Positions 7,649 through 29,187 of a stretch of 32,000 nucleotides of DNA are shown here, piece by piece (position 1 is the stretch's first letter; each line of letters opens with the position of its first letter). The stretch is taken from positions 780,001-812,000 of the forward strand of contig NZ_CP026606.1 in the NCBI RefSeq assembly GCF_002945325.1. The letters run 5' to 3'. Position numbers and translations under genes: made by a program. The notes beneath the pieces are model-generated. The model worked only from the letters and a program-made list of their open reading frames with translations. It had not been told where the DNA came from and did no database searches. Source of the DNA: Methanococcus maripaludis. GTDB lineage: Archaea > AGJL01 > Methanococci > Methanococcales > Methanococcaceae.

Positions 7649-8791
7649 TTAATTTAAATCGATTTTTTTCACACTTTGGGTCATTAAAATCGTTATTTTA
7701 TCTTTTAAAAGTTCAATTTTACATTTTTCTCCGACCGCATAATTTAATTTTTTGAATTTATCATTTTGGGCCTTTGACATAAGTTTTAAGCCATTTTGGA
7801 TTACTTCAAGGTATACAAGACTCGTAGAACCTTCATTAACCACATCTTTTATTATACATTCAAAAACGTTTTCTGTTTTTTCGCTGTTTATATCAATTAA
7901 TTTTATATTTTCAGGCCTGATTCCAAAGGAAACCTCATTCATCGATTTATTAAATTTTTTTATCGACATTTTCATGTCCCGATAGTCCAATACTGAAAAA
8001 TCAGGATTATTTTTATTGTAATCTATTTCTGCATTTGAAAAAATATTTATGTATCCAACGAGTTGTGCAACATTCGTGTTTATCGGGTTATAAAATATCT
8101 CTTCTGGAGTTCCGATCTGCTGAATCCGTCCATTATGAAATGTTACAACTTTTTCAGCCATTACAAAAGCTTCTTCAAAGCTGTGTGTCACGAAAACTAC
8201 AGGGATTTTTAATTCTTTTTGAATACTCCTCAAACTTTCCCTTAAACGCATTCTTGAAATCATATCCAGTGCAGAAAACGGTTCATCGAGTAGCAGTATT
8301 TTTGGGCTTGGTGCAAGTGCTCTTGCAAGAGCTACACGCTGTTTTTGGCCACCAGAAATCTGATCAGGATATCTATTTTCGAGTCCTTCAATCTGAGTTA
8401 ATACTAAAAGGTCAGATACCCTTTTTTCCTTTTCTTCTTCGCTTAAATGTTTAATTCCGTATTCAATATTTTCTTTGACTGTTAAATGGGGAAATAAAGC
8501 ATAATTTTGGAAAACATAACCTAAATTTCGTTCCTGTGGGGGCATATTTATGTTTTTATCGGAATCGTAATAGATTTCATTGTTTACAATAATCTTTCCG
8601 TTATCAGGATCTAAAAGGCCGGCAATACAGCCCAGCGTGCTTGTTTTTCCAGAACCTGACCTTCCAAATAAAACTATTATCGAACCGCTATCTATACTGA
8701 ATTTGGATTTTAAATTAAACGAAGGATTTTTATTCTTTTTTAATTTTTTCGATTCGTAGTAGTTTTTTTCAATATCTATTTCTAAAATCAT
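7649..8791 (-). CDS. modC: Molybdate ABC transporter ATP-binding protein with a C-terminal TOBE/Mop-like domain
   Basis: Walker A GRSGSGKTS, signature ISGGQKQRVALARAL, Walker B LLLDEPFSALD, and a roughly 130-aa C-terminal extension. The start is ATG 8791 or the GTG at 8800 that abuts the modB stop. Confidence 0.9.
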   Translation of the reverse strand: MILEIDIEKNYYESKKLKKNKNPSFNLKSKFSIDSGSIIVLFGRSGSGKTSTLGCIAGLLDPDNGKIIVNNEIYYDSDKNINMPPQERNLGYVFQNYALFPHLTVKENIEYGIKHLSEEEKEKRVSDLLVLTQIEGLENRYPDQISGGQKQRVALARALAPSPKILLLDEPFSALDMISRMRLRESLRSIQKELKIPVVFVTHSFEEAFVMAEKVVTFHNGRIQQIGTPEEIFYNPINTNVAQLVGYINIFSNAEIDYNKNNPDFSVLDYRDMKMSIKKFNKSMNEVSFGIRPENIKLIDINSEKTENVFECIIKDVVNEGSTSLVYLEVIQNGLKLMSKAQNDKFKKLNYAVGEKCKIELLKDKITILMTQSVKKIDLN

Positions 8792-8800
8792 AAATACCAC

Positions 8801-9466
8801 TTAAAACTTCCATTTTTCAACAAATCTTCCAGTAAGAAATATCGTCAAAAATGACATTATAACTAACAATACTACCAATACATTTGCTAAATCGTAGTTT
8901 CCGGTTTGAAATGCCTGGTAAATTGATAATGACATTGTATTTGTTTTTCCAGGAAGATTTCCTGCAACCATTAATGTCGCACCAAACTCACCAACTGCTC
9001 GTGCAAAACTAAGAATTGCGCCCGCAACTATTCCTTTTTTAGATAGTGGAAGGGTTATTTTGTAGATTGTCTGTAATTCTGTTTTTCCCAAAGTGTATGA
9101 TACATATTCAAGTTCCCTATCAACTGCAGAGATTGCAGCTGTCGTTGTTTTAACCATTAACGGAAATGATACGATAAATGCAGCTATTACAGCAGCCTGC
9201 CAGGTAAATAAAATTCCTGAGCCTGTAAATTTGTATATTAAACTTCCGATAAATCCATTTTTTCCAAGCTGTAGTGCAAGTAAATACCCCAAAACGGTTG
9301 GTGGAAGAACCATTGGAAGAGTTACTAAATTCTCCAGAATATCTCGCCCGTAAAATCGTTTTCTAGCGAGAATGTATGAAAGAATAACTCCAAAAATAAC
9401 TACAAAAAATGTAGATATAAAAGAAATTTTTAATGTAAGTACTAAAGGAAATACTATTGAATCCAT
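8801..9466 (-). CDS. modB: Molybdate ABC transporter permease
   Basis: 221 aa, MetI-like. EAA loop FARAVGEFGATLMVAGNLPGKTNTMS is typical of ModB/CysTW. Confidence 0.92.
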   Translation of the reverse strand: MDSIVFPLVLTLKISFISTFFVVIFGVILSYILARKRFYGRDILENLVTLPMVLPPTVLGYLLALQLGKNGFIGSLIYKFTGSGILFTWQAAVIAAFIVSFPLMVKTTTAAISAVDRELEYVSYTLGKTELQTIYKITLPLSKKGIVAGAILSFARAVGEFGATLMVAGNLPGKTNTMSLSIYQAFQTGNYDLANVLVVLLVIMSFLTIFLTGRFVEKWKF

Positions 9467-9475
9467 GAAGTATCA

Positions 9476-10279
9476 CTAATTTTCTGCTGTAAAGCCATAA
9501 TCTGTCAAGATTTGTTTTCCGGTTTCACTTGTTAAATAGTCTAAGAAAACTTGGGCTTCTTCTTTATTCTCAGAAGAATCTATGATACATACTGGATAAA
9601 TAATTTCTGTAACAGTTGGTACTGTTGCTATAATCTCGATTGAATTTTCTTTTGCAATTTTTGCATCTGTCATATATACAAATCCTGCATCAACGTCCCC
9701 AGTTTCGAGGTAAGTTAAAACCTGTCTTACATTTTCTCCGTAAACCATTTTTTCTTCGAGTTCATCCCATAAACCAGAATTTGTGAGTGATTCTTTAGCA
9801 TATTTTCCAACAGGTGCAGTTTCAGGATTTCCAATTGAAACTTTTGTTACTGCGTCACTTGTTAAATCTTCAACTGAACTAATGTTCGATGGATTTCCAG
9901 CTGGAACGATTAATACTAAACTGTTTGACGCAAAATTCGTTCTAGAACCAGCGCTTGTTAAATTTTCATCTTCAAGTATGTCTACGTGTTTTTTAGAAGC
10001 TGAAGCAAATACATCTACAGGAGCTCCCCCTTCAATCTGCTGTCGAAGCGATCCAGATGCTGCAAAATTTAATTCAACATTAATATTTGGATTATCTTCT
10101 TCAAATGCTGCTGCAATAGCTGTCATTGCATCAGTTAAACTAGATGCTGCCGAAACGGTTATCGTGGTCGTTTTTTCTGCTGATGACGAATCAGAAACGC
10201 ATCCTGCAAAGAGTAACATTGCAGATAATAAAATTGCAGTTATAAGTCCTGTGATTATTTCTGATGACTTTTTGGCCAT
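9476..10279 (-). CDS. modA: Molybdate-binding lipoprotein (ABC substrate-binding protein)
   Basis: Signal/lipobox LLFAGC. Motifs ITVSAASSLTDAM, NFAASGSL and VDVFASAS are ModA signatures. GGGGAGAA RBS. Confidence 0.92.
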   Translation of the reverse strand: MAKKSSEIITGLITAILLSAMLLFAGCVSDSSSAEKTTTITVSAASSLTDAMTAIAAAFEEDNPNINVELNFAASGSLRQQIEGGAPVDVFASASKKHVDILEDENLTSAGSRTNFASNSLVLIVPAGNPSNISSVEDLTSDAVTKVSIGNPETAPVGKYAKESLTNSGLWDELEEKMVYGENVRQVLTYLETGDVDAGFVYMTDAKIAKENSIEIIATVPTVTEIIYPVCIIDSSENKEEAQVFLDYLTSETGKQILTDYGFTAEN

Positions 10280-10304
10280 ATTTTCTCCCCTTTATATATT
10301 ATAA

Positions 10305-10322
10305 CCGGAAGTACTATTCCGG
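10305..10322. promoter_or_regulatory. Palindrome CCGGAA-gtacta-TTCCGG between a candidate TATA box and the modA RBS
   Basis: Perfect 6-bp arms. In the minus sense, TTATATATA (10348-10356) lies about 25-30 bp upstream, so the palindrome sits at the expected TSS or 5'-UTR of modABC. Confidence 0.35.
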
Positions 10323-10805: not shown

Positions 10806-11336
10806 TTATTTTTGATTTAGCGCTTGTTCAACTGTTGACATGATCTGGGAAATTTCAGGGAACTTGCTAGGAGTTTCTTCATTTCCATTGTCAACAAAGA
10901 TAAATCCGTCTTCTTTTAATTGTTTTATGTTTCTCTGAACGGCAGGATTGCTGTACATCATCGGGTTTATGTGCATTGCCGCAACGATGGGAGCTTTTGT
11001 AGACATGATTGTTGTTGCCAGCAAGTTATCTGCTATACCATTTGCAGCTTTTCCCAAGGTGTTGGCTGAAACCGGCGCTAAAATCAGCAAATCTGCCTTT
11101 TGTGATAATGATTTATGATTTGGATCATACATTTTAGGAAGTTCAAAAGCTTCGATTTGAACCGGTCTTTTAGCTTCCCTTTGAACCATCAATGGTGACA
11201 CAAAGTTGACAGAATTCGGTGTCATGATAACATCGACTTCTGCACCCCTTTCGCGCAATTGTCCAATCAAATCCAGAGTTTTTATTGCAGGACTGCATGC
11301 ACAGATACCTACCACAATATTTTTGTCTTTAAACAT
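10806..11336 (-). CDS. HFCD-family flavoprotein (PPC-decarboxylase/archaeoflavoprotein-like), 176 aa
   Basis: ADLLILAPVSANTLGKAANGIADNLLATT is the HFCD core motif. The N-terminal nucleotide loop reads GICACSPAIK rather than the usual G(S/T)GSIAAYK. Confidence 0.8.
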   Translation of the reverse strand: MFKDKNIVVGICACSPAIKTLDLIGQLRERGAEVDVIMTPNSVNFVSPLMVQREAKRPVQIEAFELPKMYDPNHKSLSQKADLLILAPVSANTLGKAANGIADNLLATTIMSTKAPIVAAMHINPMMYSNPAVQRNIKQLKEDGFIFVDNGNEETPSKFPEISQIMSTVEQALNQK

Positions 11337-11405
11337 GGGTGATCTACCTATATGTCTTTTTAAATCTCAATTATTCTATATCAGACATATTAGTATATTC
11401 CAATA

Positions 11406-11639
11406 TTAAAGTTTAGATAATTCATTTTTAATTTCTTCAACACTTGGTACTTTTCCTTCAAAGATTACTTCATCATCAACTACAACGCCAGGAGTTGACA
11501 TTACATATTCTGCAATTTTTGCAGCGTCTGTAATTTTTACTACTTCTGCATCTATTTTGAGTTCTTCTACTGCTTTTTTCACGTTGTCATAAACTTCAAC
11601 GCATTTTTTACATCCCATTCCTAATATTGTTATTTTCAT
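11406..11639 (-). CDS. Small thioredoxin-fold protein (redox-active disulfide protein 2 type)
   Basis: 77 aa, MKITILGMGCKKC with a CxxC motif, followed by TPGVVVDDEVIFEGKVPSVEEIK. GAGGT RBS. Confidence 0.85.
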   Translation of the reverse strand: MKITILGMGCKKCVEVYDNVKKAVEELKIDAEVVKITDAAKIAEYVMSTPGVVVDDEVIFEGKVPSVEEIKNELSKL

Positions 11640-11681
11640 GATTTTACCTCTAAATGTGTGTGTTAGTTAAAAATAATTAAA

Positions 11682-12638
11682 TTAAAGGAGGATATTGAAT
11701 AAATATCCAGTAATTACAATTGCAATGCTCGTAATTCCAAAGAATACCGCGATTAATTTTGGTTTTATTACTTTTCTAAGTAAAACTGCTTCTGGGAATG
11801 ATAACGCAGTTGTCGCCATCATAAATGCAAGTGCAGTTCCAATTCCAACCCCTTTTCCAATTAAAGCTTCTGCGATAGGAATTGTTCCAAGAGCATTTGA
11901 ATAAAGGGGCACTGCAATAATTGTTGCAAAAATTACTGCCAAGGGATTTTCAGGACCTGCATATTTTGCAAGCACTTCTTCTGGCGCATATCCATGTATT
12001 ATTGCACCAATTCCAATACCTATCAGGATATAGAGCCAGACTCTCTTTACAATATCACGGGTGCTGTCGTATGCAAATTTTAACCGCTCTTTTTGTGTTA
12101 ATTCTTTTATTTTTCGAGCCCTGCTTCTTATGCTGTATACATACTCTTCAACCTGATTTTCCATTCCAAGTTTGCCAATTATAAGTCCACCAACTACCCC
12201 GATAATAACGCCCGAAACCACATAAATCATTGCTATCTGCCAGCCAAATGATGCTAAAAGTACAGCAAACGCAGCTTCGTTTACTATCGGAGAAGTAATC
12301 AAGAATGAAAGAGTAACTCCTAATGGAACTCCTGCTTCAATAAATCCAATAAATATTGGAACTGAAGAGCATGAACAAAATGGCGTAACAGTCCCTAGTA
12401 GGGATGCCATAATATTTCCAGAAACTCCAGAGTACCTTTCAAGTATTTTTTTTGTTTTTTCAGGTGGGAAATAACTTCTAATGTATGAAATCGAAAATAT
12501 CATAATAGACAGCAGTATAACAATTTTTAAGCTGTCGTATATGAAAAAATGAACGGATGAGCCAATTGCAGTATCCATACTCATATTCAGGACATTTTCT
12601 ACAATATATCTCGCACCATAATCTAACCAGCCAAACAT
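11682..12638 (-). CDS. ArsP-like/DUF318 (PF03773-type) permease with a vicinal-Cys motif
   Basis: 318 aa polytopic protein. TPFCSCSSVPIFIGF is the family hallmark. GGTGA RBS. Confidence 0.85.
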   Translation of the reverse strand: MFGWLDYGARYIVENVLNMSMDTAIGSSVHFFIYDSLKIVILLSIMIFSISYIRSYFPPEKTKKILERYSGVSGNIMASLLGTVTPFCSCSSVPIFIGFIEAGVPLGVTLSFLITSPIVNEAAFAVLLASFGWQIAMIYVVSGVIIGVVGGLIIGKLGMENQVEEYVYSIRSRARKIKELTQKERLKFAYDSTRDIVKRVWLYILIGIGIGAIIHGYAPEEVLAKYAGPENPLAVIFATIIAVPLYSNALGTIPIAEALIGKGVGIGTALAFMMATTALSFPEAVLLRKVIKPKLIAVFFGITSIAIVITGYLFNILL

Positions 12639-12770
12639 TTTTTCACCAAAAAATCACATAAAACGTGATTTACCCATATTATTATTTTTAAATTGGAAAA
12701 CATGGGCTTTTGAATTTTAAAATACCTTTTTACAGGATTTAGGTATATTATAAAATATATTTATACTTTT

Positions 12771-12803
12771 CGATATACCGATATATATCGATATATATTG
12801 ATG
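12771..12803. promoter_or_regulatory. Tandem/palindromic CGATATA repeats upstream of the permease operon
   Basis: Sequence CGATATAC CGATATATAT CGATATATAT TGATG. Units start at 12771, 12779 and 12789, a period of about 9-10 bp. CGATATATATCG (12779-12790) is a perfect 12-bp palindrome. Confidence 0.35.
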
Positions 12804-13411
12804 TATTTTTAAAATATTTAAATATATAGATATATACTCATTGCAATAAATAGATAATTATAAAAATACGAGATAAGTATTATTAATTGGAGTTAATTAA
12901 CTTAATTAAATTAAGTAATTTATAAAAATTACTATTTGGCTAATTTGGTAAATAAACTCCGCAACAAATATGCATACTAAATTCAAACTACCACACCATT
13001 TTATGTTATACAAAATATAGGCTAAATTGTTTAATATAAAAATTCAGTTAATTTTTTTTCTATTATTTTTAAAAAAACATATCAAACTCTTTTCTAACGA
13101 TATGTAAAAATAGACAATATATACCCAACATAATAAATTAAATAGAAAACTATATTAGGGTTGTATACAATATCTATTAATTGGATGTGATTAATTTATC
13201 TAAAAAAGTAACTACTTATCATTAACATTTCATGTTAAATGACACTCCCTAAATAGTTTTACTTAAAAAACAGTTCGACACCCTGTTTTAAAGTAACCAC
13301 CACTCCTTAATTTTAAACCAGATTGGCCTTTGTGTTTAAAATTAAAAATTTGACCCAATACTTTTTTTATTTTTTAATCTTTTTAATCAAATGTATTTTT
13401 GATATTTTAAT

Positions 13412-13454
<43 letters not shown>

Positions 13455-13457
13455 GTA

Positions 13458-14585
13458 TTAAATCAGCCAGATTTTAACATTTTTTCTGACTTTTACTTCA
13501 TTTTCACTAACATCAACAAGACCGTCAGCATTCGCAATTGAAGTAATCATGTTTGAACCCCGAAATGCAGGGTAAGCAATCCCGTCCTTTAATTTAACTG
13601 GAAAATAGTGTTTTATTCCAAGTTCTGAATTAAATTCTTCTGAAAGGTCGGCAGTTACCAGTTCTCGCTTAAACGTTTTATGAGCCGCGTTTAAAAACAT
13701 TGGCAAAAGATATGCATAACCGCATACAAGACACGATGCAACATTTCCAGGAAGACATATTACAGGTTTTTCACTAACTTTTCCAGCAAATATTGGCATT
13801 CCAGGAATTGATTTTACTTTATGAAATAAAATATCTCCAATAGAGGATATAATTTTAAACATGTAGTCTTTTTTACCTTTAGACGTTCCACCCGAAGTTA
13901 CAACAATATCATACTGTAAAACAGTGTTTTTTATTGCATAGGTTATTTTTTCAATATTGTCCTCAACAACCCCTAAAAAAACAGGCTCACAACCTGCCTT
14001 TCTAACAATCGCAGTTAGTGTTTTTGAATTTACTTCGTTAATTTCTGAAAGTTCATTTCCAATGGAGAGTATCGCAACTTTTGGGATATCGTAAACATTT
14101 ATTTCAGCCATTCCGATTGATGCCAAAATTCCAATCGCTTTTTCATCAATCAAGGTATTTTTATCGAGAACTTTTGTATTTTTTGGAATATCTGTTCCTT
14201 TTTTAAAAATATTTGAATTTTTTGTCATTTTGACTATTCTTATCGTGTTTTCGGAATTTATCGTATTTTCGAAAGGAATTATTTTATCAGTGTTTTTTGG
14301 AATATTTGAACCTGTAGCAACCCATATACATTTTCCAGGGTTTATCAGCATGTCTACAGGGTCTCCAGCGTGAATTTCATCCGAAATTACTAAAAAATCA
14401 TTATTAAATGCATCATTAGTTATTGCGTAGCCGTCAACTGTTGATTTATCACAAAGGGGGACATCCACATTAGAATAAACGTCATCAAAAAGCACTCTCC
14501 CGTATGATTCATAAATTTCAACAGAAACTTCACGATTACATTTAAATCCATTTAAAATATTTTGAACTTCATCAGCAGTTTTCAT
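13458..14585 (-). CDS. moeA: MoeA-family molybdopterin molybdenum/tungsten transferase
   Basis: N-terminal SYGRVL...DVPLCDKSTVDGYAI, MoCF domain VVTSGGTSKGKKDY, and a MoeA_C-like tail ANADGLVDV. GGTG RBS. Confidence 0.88.
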   Translation of the reverse strand: MKTADEVQNILNGFKCNREVSVEIYESYGRVLFDDVYSNVDVPLCDKSTVDGYAITNDAFNNDFLVISDEIHAGDPVDMLINPGKCIWVATGSNIPKNTDKIIPFENTINSENTIRIVKMTKNSNIFKKGTDIPKNTKVLDKNTLIDEKAIGILASIGMAEINVYDIPKVAILSIGNELSEINEVNSKTLTAIVRKAGCEPVFLGVVEDNIEKITYAIKNTVLQYDIVVTSGGTSKGKKDYMFKIISSIGDILFHKVKSIPGMPIFAGKVSEKPVICLPGNVASCLVCGYAYLLPMFLNAAHKTFKRELVTADLSEEFNSELGIKHYFPVKLKDGIAYPAFRGSNMITSIANADGLVDVSENEVKVRKNVKIWLI

Positions 14586-14611
14586 AAAAATACACCAGCA
14601 TTACTCAAAAA

Positions 14612-15196
14612 TTATTCGGCAGATTTTTCTGCACAATTTGGGCAGATATTTTCATCATCAATACCTTTTTTAATAAAAGATTCACCACAAAGCCCGCATA
14701 CTGCAGAAAATTTTGGCTTTTTTTCAGAAACGTGAATTTCAACAGACTTCCATGAATAAATACTATCCCCTGCATCGATTAAATCAGAAATTACTTCTTC
14801 ATGGGGCACTTTTTTTATATTCATAAACCAGTTGTAAAGTGCAGGGTATTTTTCAGCTTTTTTATGATCAAACACTATCCTAACCCCTGTACCAATATCA
14901 TTTTCAGGAATTATCTTGTTTACAGTTACTGCCATGATGTCGTGGTCTTTTATGCTCAAACGTTTGTTTCCAGTCGTACAATTTCCAAGAACCTGAAATG
15001 CATCAGGCATGCAGTTTTTAGTTTCGCATGTTGCATAAACTCGCTCTCCGTCATTTATATCAAGAAATTTTTTTGCAATATTGTACATCTGTATCCCGAT
15101 AAATGCACCTCCGCTTAAATGCCCGTGAAATCTGATAACGTCTTCTATCTGTTTTGAATATTCTTTGTCCGTTACTTTTGATAATACATCATTCAT
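14612..15196 (-). CDS. FmdE-family protein with a C-terminal Zn-ribbon
   Basis: FHGHLSGGAFIG and CETKNCMPDAFQVLGNCTTGNKRL are FmdE-domain motifs. C-terminal CGLCGE...CPNC. ATG 15196 follows a GGTGA RBS; the track start at 15205 is a GTG. Confidence 0.85.
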   Translation of the reverse strand: MNDVLSKVTDKEYSKQIEDVIRFHGHLSGGAFIGIQMYNIAKKFLDINDGERVYATCETKNCMPDAFQVLGNCTTGNKRLSIKDHDIMAVTVNKIIPENDIGTGVRIVFDHKKAEKYPALYNWFMNIKKVPHEEVISDLIDAGDSIYSWKSVEIHVSEKKPKFSAVCGLCGESFIKKGIDDENICPNCAEKSAE

Positions 15197-15213
15197 TTTT
15201 TTCACCGATTAAT

Positions 15214-15990
15214 TTATTCATTATTATCTTTAACTTTCATGGAATATTTCGAAGAATTCCTGCTAAAAATTCCAAAAGAAGAACCGTGTTTTAAATCTGT
15301 GACTGTTTTATCAATATTTATTACTCTTGTTGATGCAGTGTGCGTAATTCCCGAATTTTTCAGGAAATCAGGGTTTATTTGAGCAGTTGGCCCTGTTAAA
15401 ATTTTTAATTTTGCATTTTTTGAGCGCTCCAGCACAAAATCTATCGTGTCGTTTACAAGAGTTGTTCCCGTTATCACTACCGCGTCCATTTCTGGAAGTA
15501 AACGATATTCAAACGTATCATCAATTAATTCTGCACCGCAAGACGAAGAATTTCTCTCAAATACATATATTTCATAATTTTTGCCCTCAATTTCACGTAA
15601 TTCATTTACAACTGGTGCAATATTCCCAACAAACCCTATTTTTTTAATATCTTTGTCTGATACAATCAAATCCAAAACATCTTCGTTCTTTGACTCAGTA
15701 AAATCTATATAATACTGGGAAACTGCATTTATCGCGGCCATTGCAAGTGTTCTTTCAGTCAGATTGTAGCCTTTAGCACATTCTATAATGGATTCAAGAG
15801 AAGTTTCATCAAAATCTCGTCGGTAATGGCATTTTGAATCGAGAACCATCGAAACTCCCATTTTAACCCCCTTTTCACCCTCAACAATTACATAAGCATA
15901 AGGTATTGCTATTGAATATTCTTTTAATGTTAATTTATCTCCATTTTTTAAAATTTCAAGTGTTTTATCAGCTAAATTGTCCACTATCAT
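15214..15990 (-). CDS. DUF4213/DUF364 protein (Rossmann-like, annotated 'putative heavy-metal chelation')
   Basis: About 258 aa. The architecture and the block IGFVGNIAPVV...VVITGTTLVNDT match my recollection of PF13938+PF04016. GAGGTG RBS precedes tandem ATGs. The family call was not searched. Confidence 0.7.
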   Translation of the reverse strand: MIVDNLADKTLEILKNGDKLTLKEYSIAIPYAYVIVEGEKGVKMGVSMVLDSKCHYRRDFDETSLESIIECAKGYNLTERTLAMAAINAVSQYYIDFTESKNEDVLDLIVSDKDIKKIGFVGNIAPVVNELREIEGKNYEIYVFERNSSSCGAELIDDTFEYRLLPEMDAVVITGTTLVNDTIDFVLERSKNAKLKILTGPTAQINPDFLKNSGITHTASTRVINIDKTVTDLKHGSSFGIFSRNSSKYSMKVKDNNE

Positions 15991-16019
15991 CATAACACCT
16001 CAATAATTCATTATAATCA

Positions 16020-16802
16020 CTAAATCATAGTTTTTAAATAGTCTTTATCCGGAAGAACAACTTTTTGCCCGAATATATCTGCAAATTTAGTATTTATCCC
16101 GTAAAGCTCCTGAAAATTTTCAGGGCATACTGAGTTTTTATCCGCAATTTCAGAGAGAATTTTTCCATTTTTCATTAAAAATAGGTTATCGCAGAATAGA
16201 AACGCCAAATTTGGATCGTGAAGCGACAATAAAACGGTTTTATCCATTTCTTTTGATATTTTTTCGATTACTGAAAGTACAAGGTACTGATTTTTGTAAT
16301 CTAAAAAAGATGTCGGCTCATCAAAAATCATCAATTTTGCATCCTGAATAAGCGCAGTTGCAACCATTACAAGCCTTTTTTGACCGCCACTAAGAGATAT
16401 GAATTCTTTATCTTTCAAATGGCTAATTTTTAGTAATTTTAGTATTTCAGTCACTTTTTGTTCGTCTTTTTTGGAAGGACCCCTCAAAAAATTAACGTGT
16501 GGATTTCTGCCCATCAAAACAACTTCAAATACGGTGTATGGAAAATTTATCGAAAATTCCTGCGGTGAATATGAAATTAACCGTGATCTATCTTTATAAT
16601 TCATTTGGGTAGTTTTTTCCCCGTCAATTATGATACTTCCAGATTTAACAGGAACAATTCCAGAAATACACTTTAAAATCGTTGATTTTCCAGCACCATT
16701 TGGCCCAAGTATACATCCAATTCCACTGTCAAGTTTAAAACTACAATCATTCAATATTTTGTTTTTCCCGTAATTAAAATTTATATTTTCAATATTCAAC
16801 AT
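16020..16802 (-). CDS. ABC transporter ATPase, FecE/BtuD (iron-chelate/cobalamin) type
   Basis: Walker A GPNGAGKST, signature LSGGQKRLVMVA, Walker B LMIFDEPTSFLD. The start overlaps the permease stop as TAATG. Confidence 0.92.
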   Translation of the reverse strand: MLNIENINFNYGKNKILNDCSFKLDSGIGCILGPNGAGKSTILKCISGIVPVKSGSIIIDGEKTTQMNYKDRSRLISYSPQEFSINFPYTVFEVVLMGRNPHVNFLRGPSKKDEQKVTEILKLLKISHLKDKEFISLSGGQKRLVMVATALIQDAKLMIFDEPTSFLDYKNQYLVLSVIEKISKEMDKTVLLSLHDPNLAFLFCDNLFLMKNGKILSEIADKNSVCPENFQELYGINTKFADIFGQKVVLPDKDYLKTMI

Positions 16803-17782
16803 TATTTCACCCCTCTTTTTGATAAAATAATAATCAAAATTGGTGCACCAATAAACGAAGTTATAATACTTATTGGAATTTCAGAAGGCGTTAAAGTTCT
16901 TGCAAGCGTGTCGCAGAGTAAGAGAAGTGTAGCACCTACAAAAGCAGATGCAGGAACGAGTTTCCTGTTGTCTACCCCGACTAAAAGCCTTGCAATATGT
17001 GGACTTACAACTCCAACCCACTGAATCATCCCTGCAAGTGAAGTCGATGCAGATGCAGCTAGTGTTGCAAGAAATATCGTTATATTTTTCAGTTTTTTTG
17101 AATCCACCCCTAAACTTTTTGCATTTTCATCCCCTGTTGCAAGGATGTTAAAAACCCATTTTAACATTACAAGCCCGATAATCCCGATTAACATAGGTAT
17201 AACCGATATTCCCAAATCCACCCATCGAAGGCCTACAAAACTTCCAAGAAGCCAGAAAACTATCGTTGGCAATTTTTCATAAGGGTCTGCAACGTATTTT
17301 ATAAGGCCGATCATTGCAGAAAAAAATGCAGAAATCGCCATTCCGGAAAGAATAAGCCCAACAATCCCACTTTTTAAAAGACTGCTGAGTTTATATGCAA
17401 TATATACTGCAATAACACCAAATATAAACGCGGAAAACTGTACAAGATACGGATTGTACGCAAAAAATAAAATTGCAATAGATGCACCAAATGCGGACCC
17501 GCTTGTAACCCCCAAAATATTTGGGCCTGCAAGGTAATTTTTAAAAATATTTTGAAAAGAAACTCCCGCAAGCGCTAAAGATGCCCCTGCAAGCGATACT
17601 GCAATCGCCCTTGGAAGCCGGATATCAAAAAAAATATTGTTTGCAAGTGAATTTGTAAAAATTAAAGAAGGATCAAACATGTATCTTCCAACAAACAGGG
17701 AAAATAAAAACACGCCTGCAAACAAAAAAGGAAAAACATAATTTTTATTCAATATTATCACCAACGAGCGTAACTTCGTCAA
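16802..17782 (-). CDS. FecCD/BtuC-family ABC permease
   Basis: GPNILGVTSGSAFGA and WVGVVSPHIARLLVGVDNRKLVPASAFVGATLLLLCDTLAR are FecCD motifs. The start is uncertain: TTG 17782 overlaps the SBP gene by 38 nt, and GTG 17761 is an alternative. Confidence 0.88.
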   Translation of the reverse strand: MTKLRSLVIILNKNYVFPFLFAGVFLFSLFVGRYMFDPSLIFTNSLANNIFFDIRLPRAIAVSLAGASLALAGVSFQNIFKNYLAGPNILGVTSGSAFGASIAILFFAYNPYLVQFSAFIFGVIAVYIAYKLSSLLKSGIVGLILSGMAISAFFSAMIGLIKYVADPYEKLPTIVFWLLGSFVGLRWVDLGISVIPMLIGIIGLVMLKWVFNILATGDENAKSLGVDSKKLKNITIFLATLAASASTSLAGMIQWVGVVSPHIARLLVGVDNRKLVPASAFVGATLLLLCDTLARTLTPSEIPISIITSFIGAPILIIILSKRGVK

Positions 17783-18806
17783 TACTTACATTAAAAAACC
17801 GTTCATATTCTGATGATGTAAGTTTTAAGATATCAAAGTCAGTATACATATCAGGGTGAAGTGTTTTTGCAGTCCAGTATAGCCCGAGAACATATTTTGG
17901 ACCAAGTGTATCCCAAGATTCACCATCAAACGGCATTGCGTACACATTTCCGTTTTTAACTGCATTAATTTCTTTCCAGCCGTCGTCATTTAATATATCT
18001 TCTTTTACTTTAGTGCTTGGATACTCCATCGTGTGAGCACTCGTAATTATAATGTCAGGATTCCAGCTTGCTGCTTGTTCCACGTTAATTTGTGCTTTTC
18101 CGGTTGGTAAATCACTGGAAACAGTTTTTCCCCCGGCCATTGTAATTAAATTATTTTGATAGAATTCTCCGCCAGGAGTCCAGTATGAATTCTTTTTCTG
18201 GTCGTAAACTAAAAATAAAACCCTTGGTTTTTCATTTTCGCTGATTGATGCCGTTCTTTTTAAAACATCGTTTGTAGATTGATTGTAATAATCGATTAAT
18301 TCCTGTGCATAAGCTTCTTTTTGAAATACTTCGCCCATCATTTCAATAGTTTTATAATAATTAGAAGATGTTTCTATGTCGATAAAAACAACAGGAACTC
18401 CCAAACTCTTTAATTGCGGGTACTGTCCCTGTTGTGAGCCCCAGGATGGCGCAAAAATAACATCCGGATTTAAACTTTTAATTTCTTCAACGTTGTCGCT
18501 TTTAATATCTTTTGACCGGGTTTTGAATTCTGGGTCAACTGCATCAATAAATTCATCAGCCCCCATAACGCCCCTTCCTGCAACAATTTTATCCCCTTCA
18601 CCAAAAAGGTAAATTATCGGCGGTATCAGGCCATAATTAGAAACTACTCTCTCAACCGGTGAATTAATTGTAGAAGTCTCACCCGTAAAATCAGTAACTG
18701 AAACCATGTTAACCGCTGTTGTTGTATCCCCAACTTTAGATTCTGTGGATATGCATCCGGCCAAAAAAACCAGAAGTATTGAAAATAACACCAAATATGT
18801 CCTCAT
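17745..18806 (-). CDS. Periplasmic-binding-protein (PF01497-like) lipoprotein of the FecB/BtuF class
   Basis: Signal plus lipobox VFLAGC. PDVIFAP and WNPDIIITS blocks are typical of cluster-A/type-II importer SBPs. AGGTGT RBS. Confidence 0.88.
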   Translation of the reverse strand: MRTYLVLFSILLVFLAGCISTESKVGDTTTAVNMVSVTDFTGETSTINSPVERVVSNYGLIPPIIYLFGEGDKIVAGRGVMGADEFIDAVDPEFKTRSKDIKSDNVEEIKSLNPDVIFAPSWGSQQGQYPQLKSLGVPVVFIDIETSSNYYKTIEMMGEVFQKEAYAQELIDYYNQSTNDVLKRTASISENEKPRVLFLVYDQKKNSYWTPGGEFYQNNLITMAGGKTVSSDLPTGKAQINVEQAASWNPDIIITSAHTMEYPSTKVKEDILNDDGWKEINAVKNGNVYAMPFDGESWDTLGPKYVLGLYWTAKTLHPDMYTDFDILKLTSSEYERFFNVSIDEVTLVGDNIE

Positions 18807-18986
18807 AAGTACACCTTTTATTCTTTGACATATTAATTACATAAAATTACTATTTAAATATTTTTATAACTAATTTTAATTAACATTTAAAATTTTGAAG
18901 TGACTTAGATATTAAATAATTAAAAAAATAAAAATTTACGAAATTTTAAGTCGTTTAAAACAGCTTTTTGAAATTTAAATCAGTAC

Positions 18987-19301
18987 TCAATATTTAAAAA
19001 GTTCACTTAATTTATCGTGTGACATATTTTCATTTTTTTCGATACTACCGATTCCTTTTCGGGTTAATATAAGAAATATCGGGTTATTATCTGAAATTCC
19101 CATTTTAAATTCTTCATTACTATTTCCCTGAATATAAATCATTTTTTCAAAGGATAAAGTTTCAATGCTGTCCATTAGGCTTTCTTTTCCCTCACCATTA
19201 AATTCCTCAAAAACTTCATTTATATTAACTTTAAACGTTTTTTCTCGAGTTTTCCTGCCGTAAAGATAGTTTAAAAGTTCTTTAGTTATTGAGTCAGACA
19301 T
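18987..19301 (-). CDS. Hypothetical 104-aa protein
   Basis: Strong GGAGGTGTG RBS 5 nt before the ATG. No recognisable family. Confidence 0.6.
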   Translation of the reverse strand: MSDSITKELLNYLYGRKTREKTFKVNINEVFEEFNGEGKESLMDSIETLSFEKMIYIQGNSNEEFKMGISDNNPIFLILTRKGIGSIEKNENMSHDKLSELFKY

Positions 19302-19498: not shown

Positions 19499-20332
19499 TT
19501 AACGAAACCAGTTCATTAAACCCTGCCACATCCATTCAAATACATTTTTAGACTCATTATTTGAACTGCTGGCACTATACTGGTTAGATTGTCCTGTTTG
19601 TGCGGTAGGATTTGTAGAATATCCCGTACCTGTTTCCATTTCGCTTGATATTATTTCATTATACTCTGATTCGCTAATGTACTGTGGCTCGTAAATTCCA
19701 CCATTTTGTTCGATAACTCTCGTAAATGACCTTAAATGGTTTTTCGAACCTTTTTCAAGGTTATTATATACTGCAGTGATATCCTGATTGTCAGATATTT
19801 CATTTAATTTTTTTAAATCATTTATATCTAAATCTTCAATAGTTGCACCAACAGTTAATGCATCCAGCAGTGAAACTGAACCTTTTTCAACCAATGTGCT
19901 GTAAAGTTCTGCCAGATCCTGATTTGTAAATGCTCCTCTCGTGTCATTAGTAACGGGGTCTGTCAAATTATATTTGTCTAAGAGTAACTTTACTGCATTG
20001 GTGTGAGTACTTTCACTATTTGCGATATTTAAGAAAATTTGCTGGCCCCATATGTCATATAATTCCAAATAAACATCTCTTGCCAATTTTTCTTCTTCTC
20101 TCATCAACAATAACCCGTCAATTTCTTCTTGACTTAATTCTTCAACAGGATAATTACCAATTTCTTGCTGGTGATTTACCTGTGTATCGTCATATAATTG
20201 ATACACCTGACCGCCCTGATTTTGCCCATAACTTTTATTTTGATTGCCGTATGCAGATATTGAACTTAAAATAACTAATAATAAAAGAAAGCTCGTAATA
20301 ATTTTTTTATTACTCAAAAATATCACCCCCAT
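19499..20332 (-). CDS. Secreted DUF2202 (ferritin-like) protein with Q/N/S-rich flanks
   Basis: Signal peptide SFLLLLVILSSISAYG. The core EEIDGLLLMREEEKLARDVYLELYDIWGQQIFLNIANSESTHTNAV matches DUF2202. An alternative TTG start at 20317 lies just after GGGGGTGAT. Confidence 0.75.
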   Translation of the reverse strand: MGVIFLSNKKIITSFLLLLVILSSISAYGNQNKSYGQNQGGQVYQLYDDTQVNHQQEIGNYPVEELSQEEIDGLLLMREEEKLARDVYLELYDIWGQQIFLNIANSESTHTNAVKLLLDKYNLTDPVTNDTRGAFTNQDLAELYSTLVEKGSVSLLDALTVGATIEDLDINDLKKLNEISDNQDITAVYNNLEKGSKNHLRSFTRVIEQNGGIYEPQYISESEYNEIISSEMETGTGYSTNPTAQTGQSNQYSASSSNNESKNVFEWMWQGLMNWFR

Positions 20333-21067: not shown

Positions 21068-24000
21068 ATGATAAAAAAAGTTTTATTTCTATTTTTGCTG
21101 CTTTTAGCAGTTTCAAGCGTTAGCGCTGTGGATTATACAATCAATGAAACAGATTTTGAAAATCAGACTGACGTTGATATGGCAGGATATACTTATCACG
21201 CGTTTATAGTTATTAATGAATCTGGCGAATATCAAGTAACTGCAAATTTTGCAAATAATTTTTCAAGTATCGACAATGTTGTATTCTTGATTAAAGACAC
21301 TGAAAACGTTACACTCGACTGTAACAACATGTCTTTCACAACCAATACTATATTCGGGCCAAATTATCTAGTTTATGCTTACAATTCAAGCAATATTACA
21401 GTTAAAAATCTTAATTCCAACTGGACTAGGGATGTAATTCTTTTTGAAAATGTTAATGATTCTAAAATAGAAAACTCAGAAATTATCTCTGAAAGATATC
21501 CAATTGTTTTAGAAGATTCATACGGCATTACAATCTCAGAAAATACGCTTACCTCAGATACATACCCTGTTTATGCTAAATCTGATCTTATAAACAGTAC
21601 GATTTCAGGAAATACAATTAACAATACTTGTGAATCCACTAGTTACGGCATATATTGTGATTATGCAGTTATAAACTCAATAATGTCAGAAAATACGATT
21701 ATATCATGCGCAGACAGTAGTGCTTATGGGATTTACTGTGGTGACTATTTTGAAAACTGCACGATTTCAGGAAACAATATCTCAGTAAATGGAGGAAGTT
21801 TCCACGCTTTTGGTATATGTTGTGACGAGTATATCTTAGATTCAACAATTGAAAATAACGTAATAACAGTCACTTCAGAAACATACAATGCTTACGGCAT
21901 TTTCGCAAATGAGCATATTCAAAACAGTACAATTTCAGGAAATAACATTACAAGTACTACAATAACTTCTTCGGCTGCAGCTATTGGCATTTATTCTGAA
22001 TTAGATATGTTAACTAGCACATTTTCAGGAAATAACATTACAGCTAATTCTAATCATTATTCGGCAGGTATTTCTTCAAATAGGTATGTTCAAGATACTA
22101 CAATTTCAGGAAATACAATTAATACAAATGCCACCCACAATTCCATTGATATTTGTGTCAATAGGGACCTAACAAATACGAATATCTCGGAAAATGAGAT
22201 AACTGCGATTTCCGAAGCGTACAATGCCTATGGGATTTATACCTTTGGGGGTAAGATTTTAACTAGCACGATTTTGGAAAATAATATCACAGCTAATTCT
22301 TCTACTTATGATGCTTACGGTATTTTCGCAGATGGATATCTTCAAGATACTACAATTTCAGGAAATACAATTAATACAAATGCAGTTGACGACTCTACAG
22401 GCATCTATGTTTACGATTACAGTATCGTAAATACGGATATATTAGAAAATGCAATAACTGCGATTTCAGGAAATAAGGCTTATGGGGTATACACCGAGAA
22501 TTACCATATTCAAGATACTACAATTTCAGGAAATAACATTACAATTACGGGAGATACTAACGCTCGCGGTATATATTCTAGCTATTATTTTACAGGCTCC
22601 ATAATCTCAAATAACACAATAGATGTAACGGGCAATAATTCGTACATTTTAGGTTTTAATTCAGATTTTAATAACAATGAAATATATGGTAATATTCTAT
22701 CCAGTTTGGGTAGCCAAGCATTTGGTATTTATCTTTCTGGCGATTCTGGAAATTATGAATTCTACGATAACAATATTACTGTAGCTGGTGAAGGTTCTGA
22801 AGCAATTAAACTTTCTTACTGGTTATCTGGACCTAACTCAAATATTTATAGAAATAACATCACATCAGAGCAATCTTACGCAATAGATATTATACACTGT
22901 CAAGGCGTTAGATTCTACCAAAACAACATTGATGGATTAATAAACAACGGAACAAACAACTATTTTGTTTCAAGTGAAAATATAACTTATTATTACAATG
23001 GAAATCCATACTCGGGCGTTCTTGGAAACTACTGGGCTGGATATTTAGAAGCTGATACGAATGGTGACGGTATAATCGATACGCCATACACAGAAAACTA
23101 TACAAACGATACAAAACCACTTGCTGGAATTTGGGGTGTAGATCTTACATCAAATGCTCCAAAAGTGGATTACAATGATGGAATGATCCATATTACTGAA
23201 GAAAACTTTACAAGCGTAAGTCCTTATACTGGAGGCGGTAGTGCATACGTCGTAATTACTACCCCGGGTTACTACATACTGGACTGCGATTATGTAAACG
23301 ATTCATCAATTTATAAGTTTATAGTGATTGAATCTGATAATGTAACTTTTGATGGAAACAATCACTGGTTAAATAAGACTGGAGACTACGTAGTCTATTC
23401 AAATACTGAAAACATGCTTGAAAATGTAACTGTTAAAAATTTAATGACTTCAAGCAGTATTTACATAACAGCTTCAAATTCAAATGTATCTTCAAACACT
23501 GCACAGTATGTTGGAGTTTACGGGGAGTATAACACGATTTCTTCAAACACTGCGTATGATGTTGAAGTTAGCGGAGAATATAATACGATTTCCACCAATA
23601 CTGTGGAAAATAGATTTTATTTAGCATATGACGATGGATTAAATAATTCAATAATATTCAATAACACGGTAAACTCTATTGAACTAATCGGAGACAATAA
23701 TAAAATCTCATCAAACACTGTAGATTATATTGATATGGAGGGCGATTGGGAGTATCTTTCGAATAATAACACAATCTCATCAAACATAATAACTGATTAT
23801 ATTTACGTTTACGGAGATTACAACACACTCGCCAATAACACCGTGGAAGACGAGATATACACCTGCGGATTGTATACCATAATTTCATCCAACACTGTAA
23901 CAAACTCAAGCGATTATGCAATCGATTTTGATGGGGAGGGTGAAGGAGCTTACGCAACAGTCTTCAACAACACTGTTCTTGCAAGTGAATATGGTATTCG

Positions 24001-28928: not shown

Positions 28929-28931
28929 TGT

Positions 28932-29186
28932 CTACGCCCTTTGGTTTTCTCTCTCGATTAGTATTACATAATTTACAAGGTGATTTGTGATTTTTCCAGT
29001 CTTTTCGATAATTTTCTGCTCTTCTTGTGAAAGTTTCAAAGTCCTACTGCACTTTTTTGGCATTTTCGAAACTTTTCCAAGTTTTTCGACATCTACATAG
29101 TCAATGTTTTGGATCTGGTGAAAGTAGTATCTCACCGCCAAAACATCTAATGGTTCAATAAGGCTTAGATGGAGTTTTTCATTCAT
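28932..29186 (-). CDS. Hypothetical 84-aa protein, possibly RHH/CopG-like
   Basis: ATG 29186 lies 1 nt after the mcm stop, with AAGGGTG inside the end of mcm. The C-terminal RTLKLSQEEQKIIEKTGKITNHLVNYVIL resembles a ribbon-helix-helix fold. Confidence 0.5.
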   Translation of the reverse strand: MNEKLHLSLIEPLDVLAVRYYFHQIQNIDYVDVEKLGKVSKMPKKCSRTLKLSQEEQKIIEKTGKITNHLVNYVILIERENQRA

Positions 29187-29187
29187 G

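Follow-up and report, generated by a model that had tools for sequence, protein, structure and literature searches.

Within the analysed window, a stretch of 32,000 nucleotides of DNA of the model methanogen Methanococcus maripaludis, six consecutive open reading frames on the minus strand correspond to MMP0196-0201 of strain S2. Their coordinates were verified against the list of open reading frames, and Pfam upheld all six family assignments with scores well over the gathering scores, so that gene order and families stand as an earlier sequence-only reading had given them. The leading gene encodes a class III (Peripla_BP_2) substrate-binding lipoprotein (SBP; 17745..18806, Pfam 6.6e-29) of a MolA-like subgroup with a lipobox-like LAGC motif. 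It is followed by a FecCD-family type II ABC permease of uncertain start codon (16802..17782, Pfam FecCD 1.5e-83), an ABC ATPase (16020..16802, Pfam ABC_tran), a DUF4213+DUF364 protein of the PH1506/3NPG subfamily (15214..15993, Pfam), FmdE with its N-terminal domain and a treble-clef Zn finger (14612..15205, Pfam 2.9e-33) and a short MoeA isoform of 375 aa (13458..14585; MoeA_N, MoCF_biosynth and MoeA_C in Pfam). Ahead of the SBP gene, an AT-rich spacer of 180 bp (18807..18986, minus strand) has T-runs behind the upstream ORF and, 8 nt ahead of the SBP ATG, an AGGTG ribosome-binding site (RBS); judged by its sequence, it is a possible promoter/attenuation region. The upstream ORF itself (18987..19301, minus strand) is MMP0195, an orphan of 104 aa without a match in Pfam or NCBIfam, with just 5 relatives in a set of 1.84 billion representatives and an unreliable AF2 model (pLDDT 43). 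At the 3' end of the operon, an (AT)18 dinucleotide repeat (13415..13450) begins 8 nt past the moeA stop codon.

The junctions are tight. Permease stop and ATPase start share 1 nt, the following gaps measure 26, 8 or 17, and 26 nt, and a GGTG-type RBS lies 6-8 nt 5' of every downstream start. While these values agree with the sequence-only reading, its 38-nt overlap of the SBP and permease genes presupposes a TTG start of the permease; other in-frame starts lead to an overlap of 20, 17 or 8 nt, or to a 19-nt gap. FmdE most likely starts with the ATG at 15196 (194 aa, 17-nt gap), since the alternative 'GTG' sits within the RBS, a homolog with 94% identity also comprises 194 aa, and no record contains the 197-aa form.

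According to the operon map of strain S2 (PacBio/dRNA-seq/Term-seq), MMP0195-MMP0201 form one operon (Zhang et al. 2023 Dataset S1), which confirms the proposed single transcript and extends it to the 104-aa ORF. However, the accompanying view that internal promoters would find no space at the junctions is mistaken, because promoters are located within coding sequence: internal transcription start sites are flagged at MMP0198 (ATPase) and MMP0199 (DUF364) (Zhang et al. 2023). Expression of the operon in the S2 wild type is very low, with 5 FPKM for the SBP, 0.4 for the permease and 13-20 for the four downstream genes. Given the internal start sites and the low SBP and permease values, coupling across the operon is partial, which speaks against a joint role in molybdenum or tungsten (Mo/W) supply. 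Two further observations point the same way: expression of the S2 fmdE (MMP_RS01110) is flat between N2-fixing and NH3 conditions and across Fe/S sources, unlike that of the mod clusters, which respond, and a search upstream of the operon, spacer included, revealed no NrpR operator.

Such an operator (GGAAGTACTATTCC, 10307-10320) is found just upstream of modA in the neighbouring modA-modB-modC cluster (MMP0205-0207; 7649..10320, minus strand), for which NrpR control has been described. This modABC is genuine, as had been assumed, with ModA and ModB over the NCBIfam equivalog cut-offs. M. maripaludis possesses three Mod clusters, two of them NrpR-regulated (MMP0205-0207 and MMP0504-0507), and WtpABC has been reported as well; this wealth of transporters also weighs against a further supply route.

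All three importer components lead to a characterised ABC importer of type II that takes up molybdate/tungstate, MolBC-A (HI1470/HI1471/HI1472) of Haemophilus influenzae. The best PDB relative of the permease is HI1471 (MolB) with 214 bits, compared to 152 for HmuU and 123 for BtuC, and that of the ATPase is HI1470 (MolC, 3.2e-36). The SBP matches 4hn9, 4ovk and MolA (3psa) by sequence, while Foldseek places MolA 3PSA first for its AF2 model (pLDDT 89; E 3e-23, TM 0.75/0.81), at an identity of 23% in the Foldseek alignment and about 29% over the C-lobe. However, in this model comparison the lead of MolA is marginal, with YiuA (Fe-catecholate) and CeuE (Ni-His2) close behind, and this near-equality counts against a Mo/W substrate. 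Public annotation treats the importer as an iron(III) or haem system, yet the SBP reached no NCBIfam equivalog cut-off and none of the transporter genes reached one for siderophore, haem or B12, the scores being far too low (e.g., BtuF 49 vs 234, IsdE 95 vs 299).

MolBC-A consists of the same trio of class III Peripla_BP_2 SBP, FecCD permease and ATPase, and H. influenzae, like M. maripaludis, additionally has a high-affinity ModABC. It differs in being bacterial, and no operon with DUF364, FmdE or MoeA is described for it in the sources cited. MolA is described as low-affinity, which makes the substrate assignment of MolBC-A itself somewhat doubtful and counts against the Mo/W interpretation. 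The earlier assumption that importers of this class transport chelates rather than free oxyanions is wrong in view of the closest characterised relative. The importers BtuCD-F (cobalamin), HmuUV-T/BhuUV-T (haem) and FhuBCD/FecBCDE (ferric siderophores) share superfamily and fold in all three components, but Moco genes alongside them are not described in the sources cited.

FmdE (PDB 3d00, 3.8e-19) reads HGHLS where the consensus is FHGHxC, a deviation correctly recognised before, and carries four C-terminal Cys that are invariant in five orthologs. Among 77 fmdE-anchored loci with its orthologs (45-54% identity), 62 have fmd structural genes at most 5 genes away, mostly with FmdE leading fmdEFACDB. 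Of all 77, a Mo/W transporter component of type I is present in 31 and a ModE-like regulator in 9. The best PDB match of MoeA is P. horikoshii MoeA 1uz5; among the matches recovered, Methanococcales and metagenomic contigs are the only sources of close relatives of the short form (44-47% identity, 372-424 aa), which adjoin fmd and ModABC. With 46-54% identity, FmdE and MoeA are orthologous to genes that in other Methanococcales flank ModABC and the fmd structural genes, and the suspected link of the operon to the Mo/W cofactor thereby holds.

The DUF364 protein (PDB 3npg, 4.5e-59) keeps the Rossmann features G123, P127, E146 and D170. Orf5, the sole DUF364 enzyme characterised, forms an azetidine carboxylate by cyclising a SAM derivative, with Tyr61 and Glu204 as catalytic residues; nicotianamine synthesis employs this chemistry. 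The window protein is 41-49% identical to importer-linked copies from M. voltae and locus L083 and to a copy (L102) with seemingly Thermococcales-like neighbour genes, but only 26-30% to Mod-embedded DUF364s, which thus represent different subfamilies. This, and the lack of a transporter neighbour beside its nearest relatives outside Methanococcales, are points against the Mo/W connection. However, since DUF364 is also embedded in modA-DUF364-modB-modC operons of type I, where the binding protein is of the ModA class for free oxyanions, its presence is no sign of a chelate.

Gene neighbourhoods of other organisms indicate that the operon is put together from two units. The first combines the type II importer with the PH1506-type DUF364; this block also occurs in M. 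voltae, with a MoCF_biosynth gene about 3 kb away, and in the metagenomic loci L083, L092 and L108. The second is the fmdE-moeA pair, which in Methanotorris igneus encloses the genes of Mo-formylmethanofuran dehydrogenase and is directly followed by modABC (fmdE-fmdA-fmdC-fmdB-MoeA-ModA-ModB-ModC-x-DUF364); in Methanothermococcus it encloses the Fmd genes in convergent orientation. Outside M. maripaludis the complete six-gene block was absent from the sampled loci, so that the synteny asked for by the sequence-only reading is limited to sub-blocks (importer+DUF364; importer or binding protein+fmdE; importer+DUF364+MoeA), which again disfavours the Mo/W interpretation. Type II components with FmdE, MoeA or DUF364 partners nevertheless recur in separate lineages and at least three SBP clades (L066, L077, L040/41/59, L085).

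The same partner families also accompany a different importer class. Locus L111 is ordered FmdE / ModA-DUF364-ModB-ModC-..-MoeA, and in S2 modA-modB-DUF364-modC adjoins fmdE-fmdACB (MMP0504-0511); identity to the window proteins is 47-54% for FmdE and 46-47% for MoeA. Like the window operon, the S2 and M. igneus clusters place DUF364 and FmdE beside an ABC importer, and M. igneus shares the orthologous short MoeA. In contrast, their importer is of type I (ModA SBP_bac_11, ModB BPD_transp_1), they contain the Fmd structural genes whereas the window operon is without adjacent fmdACB, and MMP0504-0507 are NrpR-regulated. The DUF364-containing mod operon of S2 is co-fit with nifH in RB-TnSeq.

No characterised system of such composition exists, in accordance with the earlier view, while calling the arrangement undescribed was overstated. 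DUF364 genes are known to lie beside ABC transporters whose annotated substrates are tungstate, molybdate, vanadium and iron (Miller et al. 2010); the majority of FmdE/PF02663 genes adjoin metal-ion transporters, and FmdE fusions to a MoCF_biosynth domain have been reported (Axelrod et al. 2010). These JCSG studies offer pairwise STRING or Pfam context only, without the window operon, a distinction of importer types or an assigned function.

Taken together, we give about an even chance to the interpretation of MMP0195-0201 as a Mo/W importer of the Mol type, linked to genes for cofactor loading, that supplies Mo and/or W to the pterin cofactor. Molybdate or tungstate would cross the membrane as in MolBC-A, DUF364 would act at some step in the cytoplasm and probably bind a ligand that contains adenosine, insertion of the metal into molybdopterin would fall to MoeA, and FmdE might serve as accessory or chaperone toward Fmd/Fwd-type enzymes. 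This interpretation draws support from the relation of permease and ATPase to MolBC with MolA among the top SBP matches, the tight RBS-equipped junctions and published transcript map, the fmd genes near fmdE, the FmdE-MoCF_biosynth fusions, the recurrence of type II components with these partners in separate lineages and the occurrence of the partners beside type I importers. As MolBC-A imports molybdate and tungstate, the arrangement does not require a chelated metal, and the operon is probably an extra Mo/W supply route rather than a new chelate pathway.

Other scenarios could be envisioned. The adjacency might be accidental and co-transcription meaningless: importer and DUF364, carrying an iron chelate, a Ni/Co complex, haem or a corrinoid in line with the public annotation, would have landed beside an fmdE-moeA pair left over in M. 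maripaludis once fmdACB moved elsewhere. The window order DUF364-FmdE-MoeA-[3 genes]-ModABC, mirroring fmdE-fmdACB-MoeA-ModABC of M. igneus, fits such a remnant. Only in M. maripaludis is the importer followed by FmdE and MoeA, whereas the M. voltae and metagenomic blocks end at DUF364; Methanotorris formicicus has the importer without even DUF364, and more distant SBP homologs (L084, L086) are without Mo context. The internal start sites and 3- to 30-fold higher downstream transcripts show partial independence. However, repeated recurrence in unrelated lineages and SBP clades is not expected of chance, and the MolBC affinity, the missed iron, haem and B12 cut-offs and the MoCF_biosynth gene of M. 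voltae oppose this scenario as well, which we consider rather unlikely.

The chelate route of the sequence-only reading survives weakly and appears improbable to us. Here the importer would take up Mo/W or another metal as a thio-species or on a small organic ligand, nicotianamine-like or otherwise SAM-derived, which a SAM-utilising DUF364 would make or dismantle ahead of FmdE and MoeA. Besides the Orf5 chemistry and the small-metal-chelate binders among the SBP's structural neighbours, SAM enzymes added in related loci favour it: L085 combines three DUF364 copies, MoeA, a UbiE-like methyltransferase and a radical-SAM/Peripla_BP_2 fusion with FecCD, SBP and ATPase; L066 reads FmdE'-DUF364-MTase-FmdE-MTase-SBP-FecCD-ATPase; in L007, DUF364-MTase-FmdE-MTase is accompanied by nicotianamine synthase and radical SAM; and in Methanotorris (L082) a FecBCD set precedes two methyltransferases and a radical-SAM/SBP fusion. 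The comparison with opine/nicotianamine-type metallophore systems, whose SAM-derived aminocarboxypropyl chemistry resembles the Orf5 reaction, is our own, the archaeal nicotianamine synthase family (Pfam NAS) being the only one observed. However, the window operon contains no nicotianamine synthase, opine dehydrogenase, methyltransferase or radical-SAM gene, and no ligand biosynthesis genes were found nearby within the window. The bacterial metallophore systems use Opp/Nik-type importers, not FecCD-type ones. DUF364 in free-oxyanion operons and the free oxyanion carried by MolBC-A argue likewise.

Finally, a decaying or silent paralogous system, redundant and kept by drift among several Mo/W importers, seems highly improbable. 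It would agree with the very low expression, above all of the permease, and the operon is unmentioned in the main text of the RB-TnSeq study. Moreover, two of the frames are broken elsewhere, that of the ATPase into 66+194 aa in one strain and that of MoeA into 231+144 aa in Methanococcus sp. CF, which also disfavours active Mo/W supply. However, the window has all six frames and their RBSs intact, the proteins share at least 90% identity over about 20 M. maripaludis sequence variants each, and a scavenging system would likewise show low expression in metal-replete medium.

The six minus-strand genes at 13458-18806 are publicly annotated as an iron(III) transporter, while our analysis places the operon closest to MolBC-A, the molybdate/tungstate importer of Haemophilus influenzae (HI1470-HI1472); this placement is new. 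A sequence-only reading had listed a substrate-binding protein (SBP), a permease, an ATPase, a DUF364 protein, FmdE and MoeA. All six ORFs are present, and Pfam bears out each family well over threshold (Peripla_BP_2, FecCD, ABC_tran, DUF4213 plus DUF364, FmdE, and MoeA_N plus MoCF_biosynth plus MoeA_C). The junctions are likewise as claimed, with a 1-nt overlap of ATPase start and permease stop and gaps of 26, 8 or 17, and 26 nt, and a GGTG-type ribosome-binding site can be read before each downstream start. The 38-nt overlap of SBP and permease hinges on a TTG start, to which several other in-frame starts are possible alternatives. For fmdE, the ATG at 15196 is most likely the start, since the GTG is part of the ribosome-binding site and a 94% identical homolog has the resulting length of 194 aa. 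The GTG was rejected for the same reasons, and it being the wrong start also explains why exact-sequence look-up returned no record of the 197-aa form.

Exact-sequence look-ups also placed the window in Methanococcus maripaludis and gave CAF29752-CAF29757 (MMP0196-0201) as the strain S2 counterparts. New-style S2 tags were deduced from gene order, one of them, MMP_RS01110 (fmdE), being confirmed. The published PacBio, dRNA-seq and Term-seq map, from which the operon boundaries have been known since 2023, gives a single operon 'MMP0195 MMP0201', consisting of the six genes and an upstream 104-aa ORF, MMP0195 (Zhang et al., 2023). The map also flags transcription start sites at MMP0198 and MMP0199, and wild-type FPKM values from MMP0195 to MMP0201 are 5.2, 5.0, 0.43, 13.2, 12.5, 13.5, and 19.8 (Zhang et al., 2023). 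Thus co-transcription is experimentally shown but partial, and the argument that the tight junctions leave no room for internal promoters fails. In a transcriptome supplement MMP_RS01110 figures as second fmdE, with low and flat expression over nitrogen and Fe/S conditions. The operon genes are absent from the RB-TnSeq supplement, a literature search found no main-text mention of MMP0196-0201 or MMP_RS01090-01115, and we found no discussion of the operon in work on Mo/W uptake by M. maripaludis. An operator search revealed no NrpR operator upstream of the operon, and in Rfam the window matched neither a riboswitch nor any other RNA.

The chelate idea of the earlier reading rested on the premise that this importer class carries no free oxyanions. 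This is wrong: MolBC-A, an already known and characterised type II ABC importer, takes up molybdate and tungstate and coexists with ModABC. The chief argument for a chelate thereby falls away. The FecCD model matches the permease over its full length (1.5e-83), and among solved structures MolB (HI1471) scores best with 214 bits, followed by HmuU (152), FhuB (148), and BtuC (123); the ATPase finds its best match in MolC (HI1470). By sequence, permease and ATPase have type II architecture and stand nearer to MolB/MolC than to chelate importers. All NCBIfam equivalogs for siderophore, haem and cobalamin uptake (Fec, Fhu, Fep, Hmu/Isd, Btu) score far under cut-off: archaeal-type BtuC reaches 204 (cut-off 461), E. 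coli-type BtuC 188 (334), FecC 157 (396), IsdE 95 (299), BtuF 49 (234), and the haem ATPase 183 (261). In contrast to the type I systems ModABC, WtpABC and TupABC, the SBP is of the Peripla_BP_2 type and the permease of the FecCD type, rather than of the ModA/WtpA/TupA class and BPD_transp_1. The modABC cluster reported 3.2 kb away is genuine, with ModA and ModB exceeding their equivalog cut-offs. Published work counts three Mod clusters for Mo uptake in M. maripaludis, and one paper also gives WtpABC; as the species reportedly has WtpABC, we dropped a 'missing tungstate transporter' as headline.

The SBP speaks less clearly. Its sequence matches in the PDB are led by two unliganded structural-genomics proteins (4hn9, 4ovk), with MolA third and aligned mainly over the C-lobe. 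The AF2 model (pLDDT 89) has MolA (3PSA) as Foldseek top match (E 3e-23, TM 0.75/0.81), while 4hn9, 4ovk, YiuA, and CeuE follow within one to four orders of magnitude. YiuA binds Fe-catecholate fragments and Helicobacter pylori CeuE Ni-His2, so Foldseek on this model does not tell binding of oxyanions apart from binding of small chelates. Alignment with fragments of MolA, 4hn9 and 4ovk revealed common motifs, but picked out no ligand residues. MolA itself is described as low-affinity.

[quoted passage not shown] The finger ligands C170, C173, C188, and C191 are invariant in five orthologs, and the alignment to PDB 3d00 takes in the finger. The earlier reading had suggested that the metal site may differ, and the N-terminal FHGHxC Zn/Ni site is indeed missing: FmdE reads FHGHLS, with Cys replaced by Ser. 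Across orthologs the second His varies as H/C/Y/F, and invariance is confined to the distal Cys (C65). The best PDB relative, 3d00, lacks the same site (His15 to Tyr, Cys19 to Ala) and binds an anion instead. No fmdA, fmdC or fmdB adjoins FmdE in the window, where it is not the first gene of an fmd operon. Scanning a single genome for each species yielded 80 loci (45-54% identity), all from methanogens or ANME-type archaea. Their neighbourhoods, with ORFs called by us and labelled by best match, comprise 77 usable loci that are linked by kinship and in many cases incomplete. Among these, fmd structural genes lie within five genes in 62, mostly with fmdE leading fmdEFACDB. Components of type I Mo/W transporters (an SBP resembling ModA or TupA, ModB or ModC) occur in 31, a ModE-like regulator in 9, Peripla_BP_2 SBPs in 4, and a FecCD permease in 1; in another locus, L077, a FecBCD set lies 2.4 kb upstream. 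From these neighbourhoods, the FmdE of the window is a close relative of genuine fmdE products.

Two side observations concern other fmd loci. In Ca. Methanoperedens (L003, L009, L013, L020 and others) a ModE-like regulator (HTH_1+TOBE) and a TupA-like SBP (PBP_like_2) stand immediately upstream of, and co-directional with, fmdE-fmdFACDB. In Methanothermococcus, fmdB is seemingly split into 119 + 328 aa (L015:11811-13172, L023:4157-5518). The break in L015 is an in-frame TGA (12168-12170) beyond which the frame runs on into the next ORF, most likely marking a selenocysteine codon and not a pseudogene.

For MoeA, the Pfam models MoeA_N (domains I-II), MoCF_biosynth (III), and MoeA_C (IV) are all over cut-off and the protein aligns nearly full length to Pyrococcus horikoshii MoeA (1uz5, 4.9e-55), with the four-domain architecture in place; its best NCBIfam equivalog reaches 228 against a cut-off of 440. 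Among the matches recovered, the close relatives (44-47% identity) of this short MoeA are confined to Methanococcales and metagenomic contigs. In Methanotorris igneus the order is fmdE-fmdA-fmdC-fmdB-MoeA-ModA-ModB-ModC-x-DUF364, Methanothermococcus has MoeA convergent to fmdE-fmdC-fmdB, and two further loci read ModABC-..-MoeA (L110) and FmdE | ModA-DUF364-ModB-ModC-..-MoeA (L111). Pairwise identities of FmdE (47-54%) and MoeA (46-47%) support, as a further new result, that both are orthologous to Mod/Fmd-linked genes. In related genera this short MoeA goes with Mo-type fmd and with ModABC, which hints at Mo for the operon; Mo/W selectivity of MoeA isoforms stands as a hypothesis in the literature. 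The window order FmdE-MoeA-[ArsP, thioredoxin-like, flavoprotein]-ModA-ModB-ModC matches M. igneus in order and orientation, while in S2 fmdACB is located elsewhere and a second fmdE lies beside modA-modB-DUF364-modC. By its make-up, we infer, the operon resembles two fused units, an importer-DUF364 block conserved in Methanococcales and an fmdE-moeA pair left over from an ancestral fmdE-fmdACB-moeA-modABC supercluster. It is new as well that a type II importer occupies the place that ModABC holds in sister genera.

The DUF4213 and DUF364 models both exceed cut-off, the crystal structure 3npg matches at 4.5e-59, and the glycine loop and acidic residue of DUF364 are conserved; the protein combines enolase-N-like and Rossmann-like domains. 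It is of the PH1506/3NPG type and shares merely 26-30% identity with Mod-embedded DUF364s, one of which was reported in 2024 as co-fit with nifH. Orthologs of the SBP share 43-48% identity. Methanococcus voltae and the metagenomic loci L083, L092, and L108 share the block SBP-FecCD-ATPase-DUF364, and Methanotorris formicicus has the importer without DUF364; no FmdE or MoeA lies downstream in any of these. Among the loci sampled, only M. maripaludis showed the exact six-gene synteny. A metagenome scan with a three-sequence DUF364 alignment gave 22 loci, only three of them linked to an importer (L092, L093, L108). L102-type loci, Thermococcales-like by their neighbours, have no transporter beside DUF364. 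In this group (L096-L106) PH1506-type DUF364 has as conserved neighbours a Pterin_bind enzyme (dihydropteroate-synthase-like), a GHMP kinase, a glutamine amidotransferase, and RLI, which recalls a pterin-related-ligand suggestion from 2010 but may reflect mere shared ancestry. We rejected the Pterin_bind/GHMP kinase/RLI neighbourhood as functional evidence, as gene orientations differ and the loci are closely related. In M. formicicus (L082:1179-10973) two tandem FecBCD-type importers enclose two methyltransferases, a radical-SAM/Peripla_BP_2 fusion, and DUF2119; the latter also immediately precedes the SBP in L083 and L092.

Taken together, we propose a Mol-type Mo/W importer with cofactor-loading genes, a reading to which we give about an even chance. 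The importer would bring in molybdate and/or tungstate like MolBC-A, MoeA would put the metal into molybdopterin, FmdE might aid maturation of Fmd/Fwd-type enzymes, and DUF364 might work at a cytoplasmic step. Architecture, families, operon structure, orthology and genomic contexts are established here, whereas what is carried, how it is handed on, and what FmdE and DUF364 do are inferences. Alternatively, and rather less probably, the importer has an unrelated cargo and the juxtaposition is accidental; if it carried iron or a corrinoid, an ordinary transporter would stand beside a remnant gene pair. A functional link is favoured by type II components recurring with the same partners in separate lineages: FmdE'-DUF364-MTase-FmdE-MTase-SBP-FecCD-ATPase in a Methanobacteriaceae locus (L066), SBP-FecCD-ATPase upstream of fmdEFACDB (L077), an orphan Peripla_BP_2 SBP immediately upstream of fmdE in Methanosarcina (L040, L041, L059), and, in L085:127-10483 (Logan SRR28341240), a co-directional DUF364-FecCD-SBP-SBP-DUF364-MoeA-DUF364-UbiE-like methyltransferase-radical SAM/Peripla_BP_2 fusion-ABC ATPase. 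The SBPs of these loci fall into at least three clades with about 27-31% identity to the MolA C-lobe (21% in L077). Against such a link count the sighting of the six-gene block in M. maripaludis alone, the expression of SBP and permease far below the downstream genes, and the split ATPase or MoeA of some strains. These splits, annotated as 66 + 194 aa for the ATPase of one M. maripaludis strain (BAP60320/BAP60321) and 231 + 144 aa for MoeA in Methanococcus sp. CF, are strain-level decay. That the operon as a whole is a decaying redundant system appears the least probable reading: weak expression in metal-replete laboratory medium is expected of it, but fits a scavenging or conditional system equally.

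An uptake of metal by a chelate route, which we consider unlikely, would agree with the only characterised DUF364 enzyme, Orf5 (Tyr61, Glu204), which is described as cyclising a SAM derivative, and with related loci that carry methyltransferases, radical-SAM/SBP fusions, and a nicotianamine synthase. However, the operon itself has no genes for any of these, and DUF364 occurs within the gene sets of type I oxyanion importers as well. One might speculate, with slightly less confidence still, that the operon is the minimal form of a wider methanogen system. A MolA-like type II importer would take up Mo/W as a SAM-derived nicotianamine-like complex or as a thio-species of the kind usual in sulfidic habitats. 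DUF364 would build the ligand or take it apart, in other lineages aided by methyltransferases, radical-SAM/SBP fusions and nicotianamine synthase, and FmdE as anion- or cofactor-binding chaperone, together with a metal-selective MoeA isoform, would load the metal onto molybdopterin. Two loci deserve mention besides. L085, with its three DUF364 paralogs, holds this guild in a far richer form. In L007:3787-11460, part of a Methanobacteriota MAG, the cluster DUF364-methyltransferase-FmdE-methyltransferase is accompanied by genes for nicotianamine synthase (PF03059) and a radical-SAM protein, which hints at a SAM-derived metallophore tied to FmdE and DUF364.

Associations of DUF364 with Mo/W/V/Fe transporters and of FmdE with metal-ion transporters have been known since 2010. 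If the operon of this genetically tractable model organism does import Mo/W, archaea would have their first Mol-type importer, and there would be a natural case of a type II importer replacing ModABC beside same-family partner genes. It would then also offer a handle on FmdE function, on the role of DUF364 beside metal importers, and on Mo/W choice by archaeal MoeA isoforms. The question bears on Mo acquisition by methanogens in sulfidic habitats.

The 104-aa ORF (18987-19301, minus strand), which the published map includes in the operon transcript, matches neither Pfam nor NCBIfam, has only five relatives among 1.84 billion representatives, and gives a single-sequence AF2 model with pLDDT 43. 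Among the weak relatives are three small proteins of 106-109 aa. MMP0195 rises 9-fold upon depletion of the termination factor aCPSF1. A role as regulator is conceivable but speculative. Just upstream of modA lies an NrpR operator, matching the published account. An exact match to the operator consensus GGAATATCTGTTCC within moeA (14185-14198) is probably due to chance, as the window holds three matches against 0.66 expected and three were reached in 4 of 100 shuffles. A perfect (AT)18 repeat (13415-13450) begins 8 nt past the moeA stop codon, in a gene-free AT-rich stretch of 820 bp (12639-13457) without Rfam match. Three genes separate moeA from modA (10806-12638, minus strand); they encode an ArsP_1-type permease (SaoE-like efflux), a thioredoxin-like protein of the MTH895/ArsE family, and a CoaC-like flavoprotein, and look like an insertion relative to moeA-modABC of M. 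igneus. Further away lie a minus-strand DUF2202 protein with signal-like N-terminus (19499-20332) and a plus-strand ORF of 1273 aa (21068-24889), highly repetitive, rich in Asn, Ser and Thr, with a hydrophobic N-terminus and surface-protein-like. Finally, a XerA-like tyrosine recombinase beside an MCM helicase homolog, the latter well under its curated cut-off (27960-31212, minus strand), suggests an integrated element or provirus remnant.
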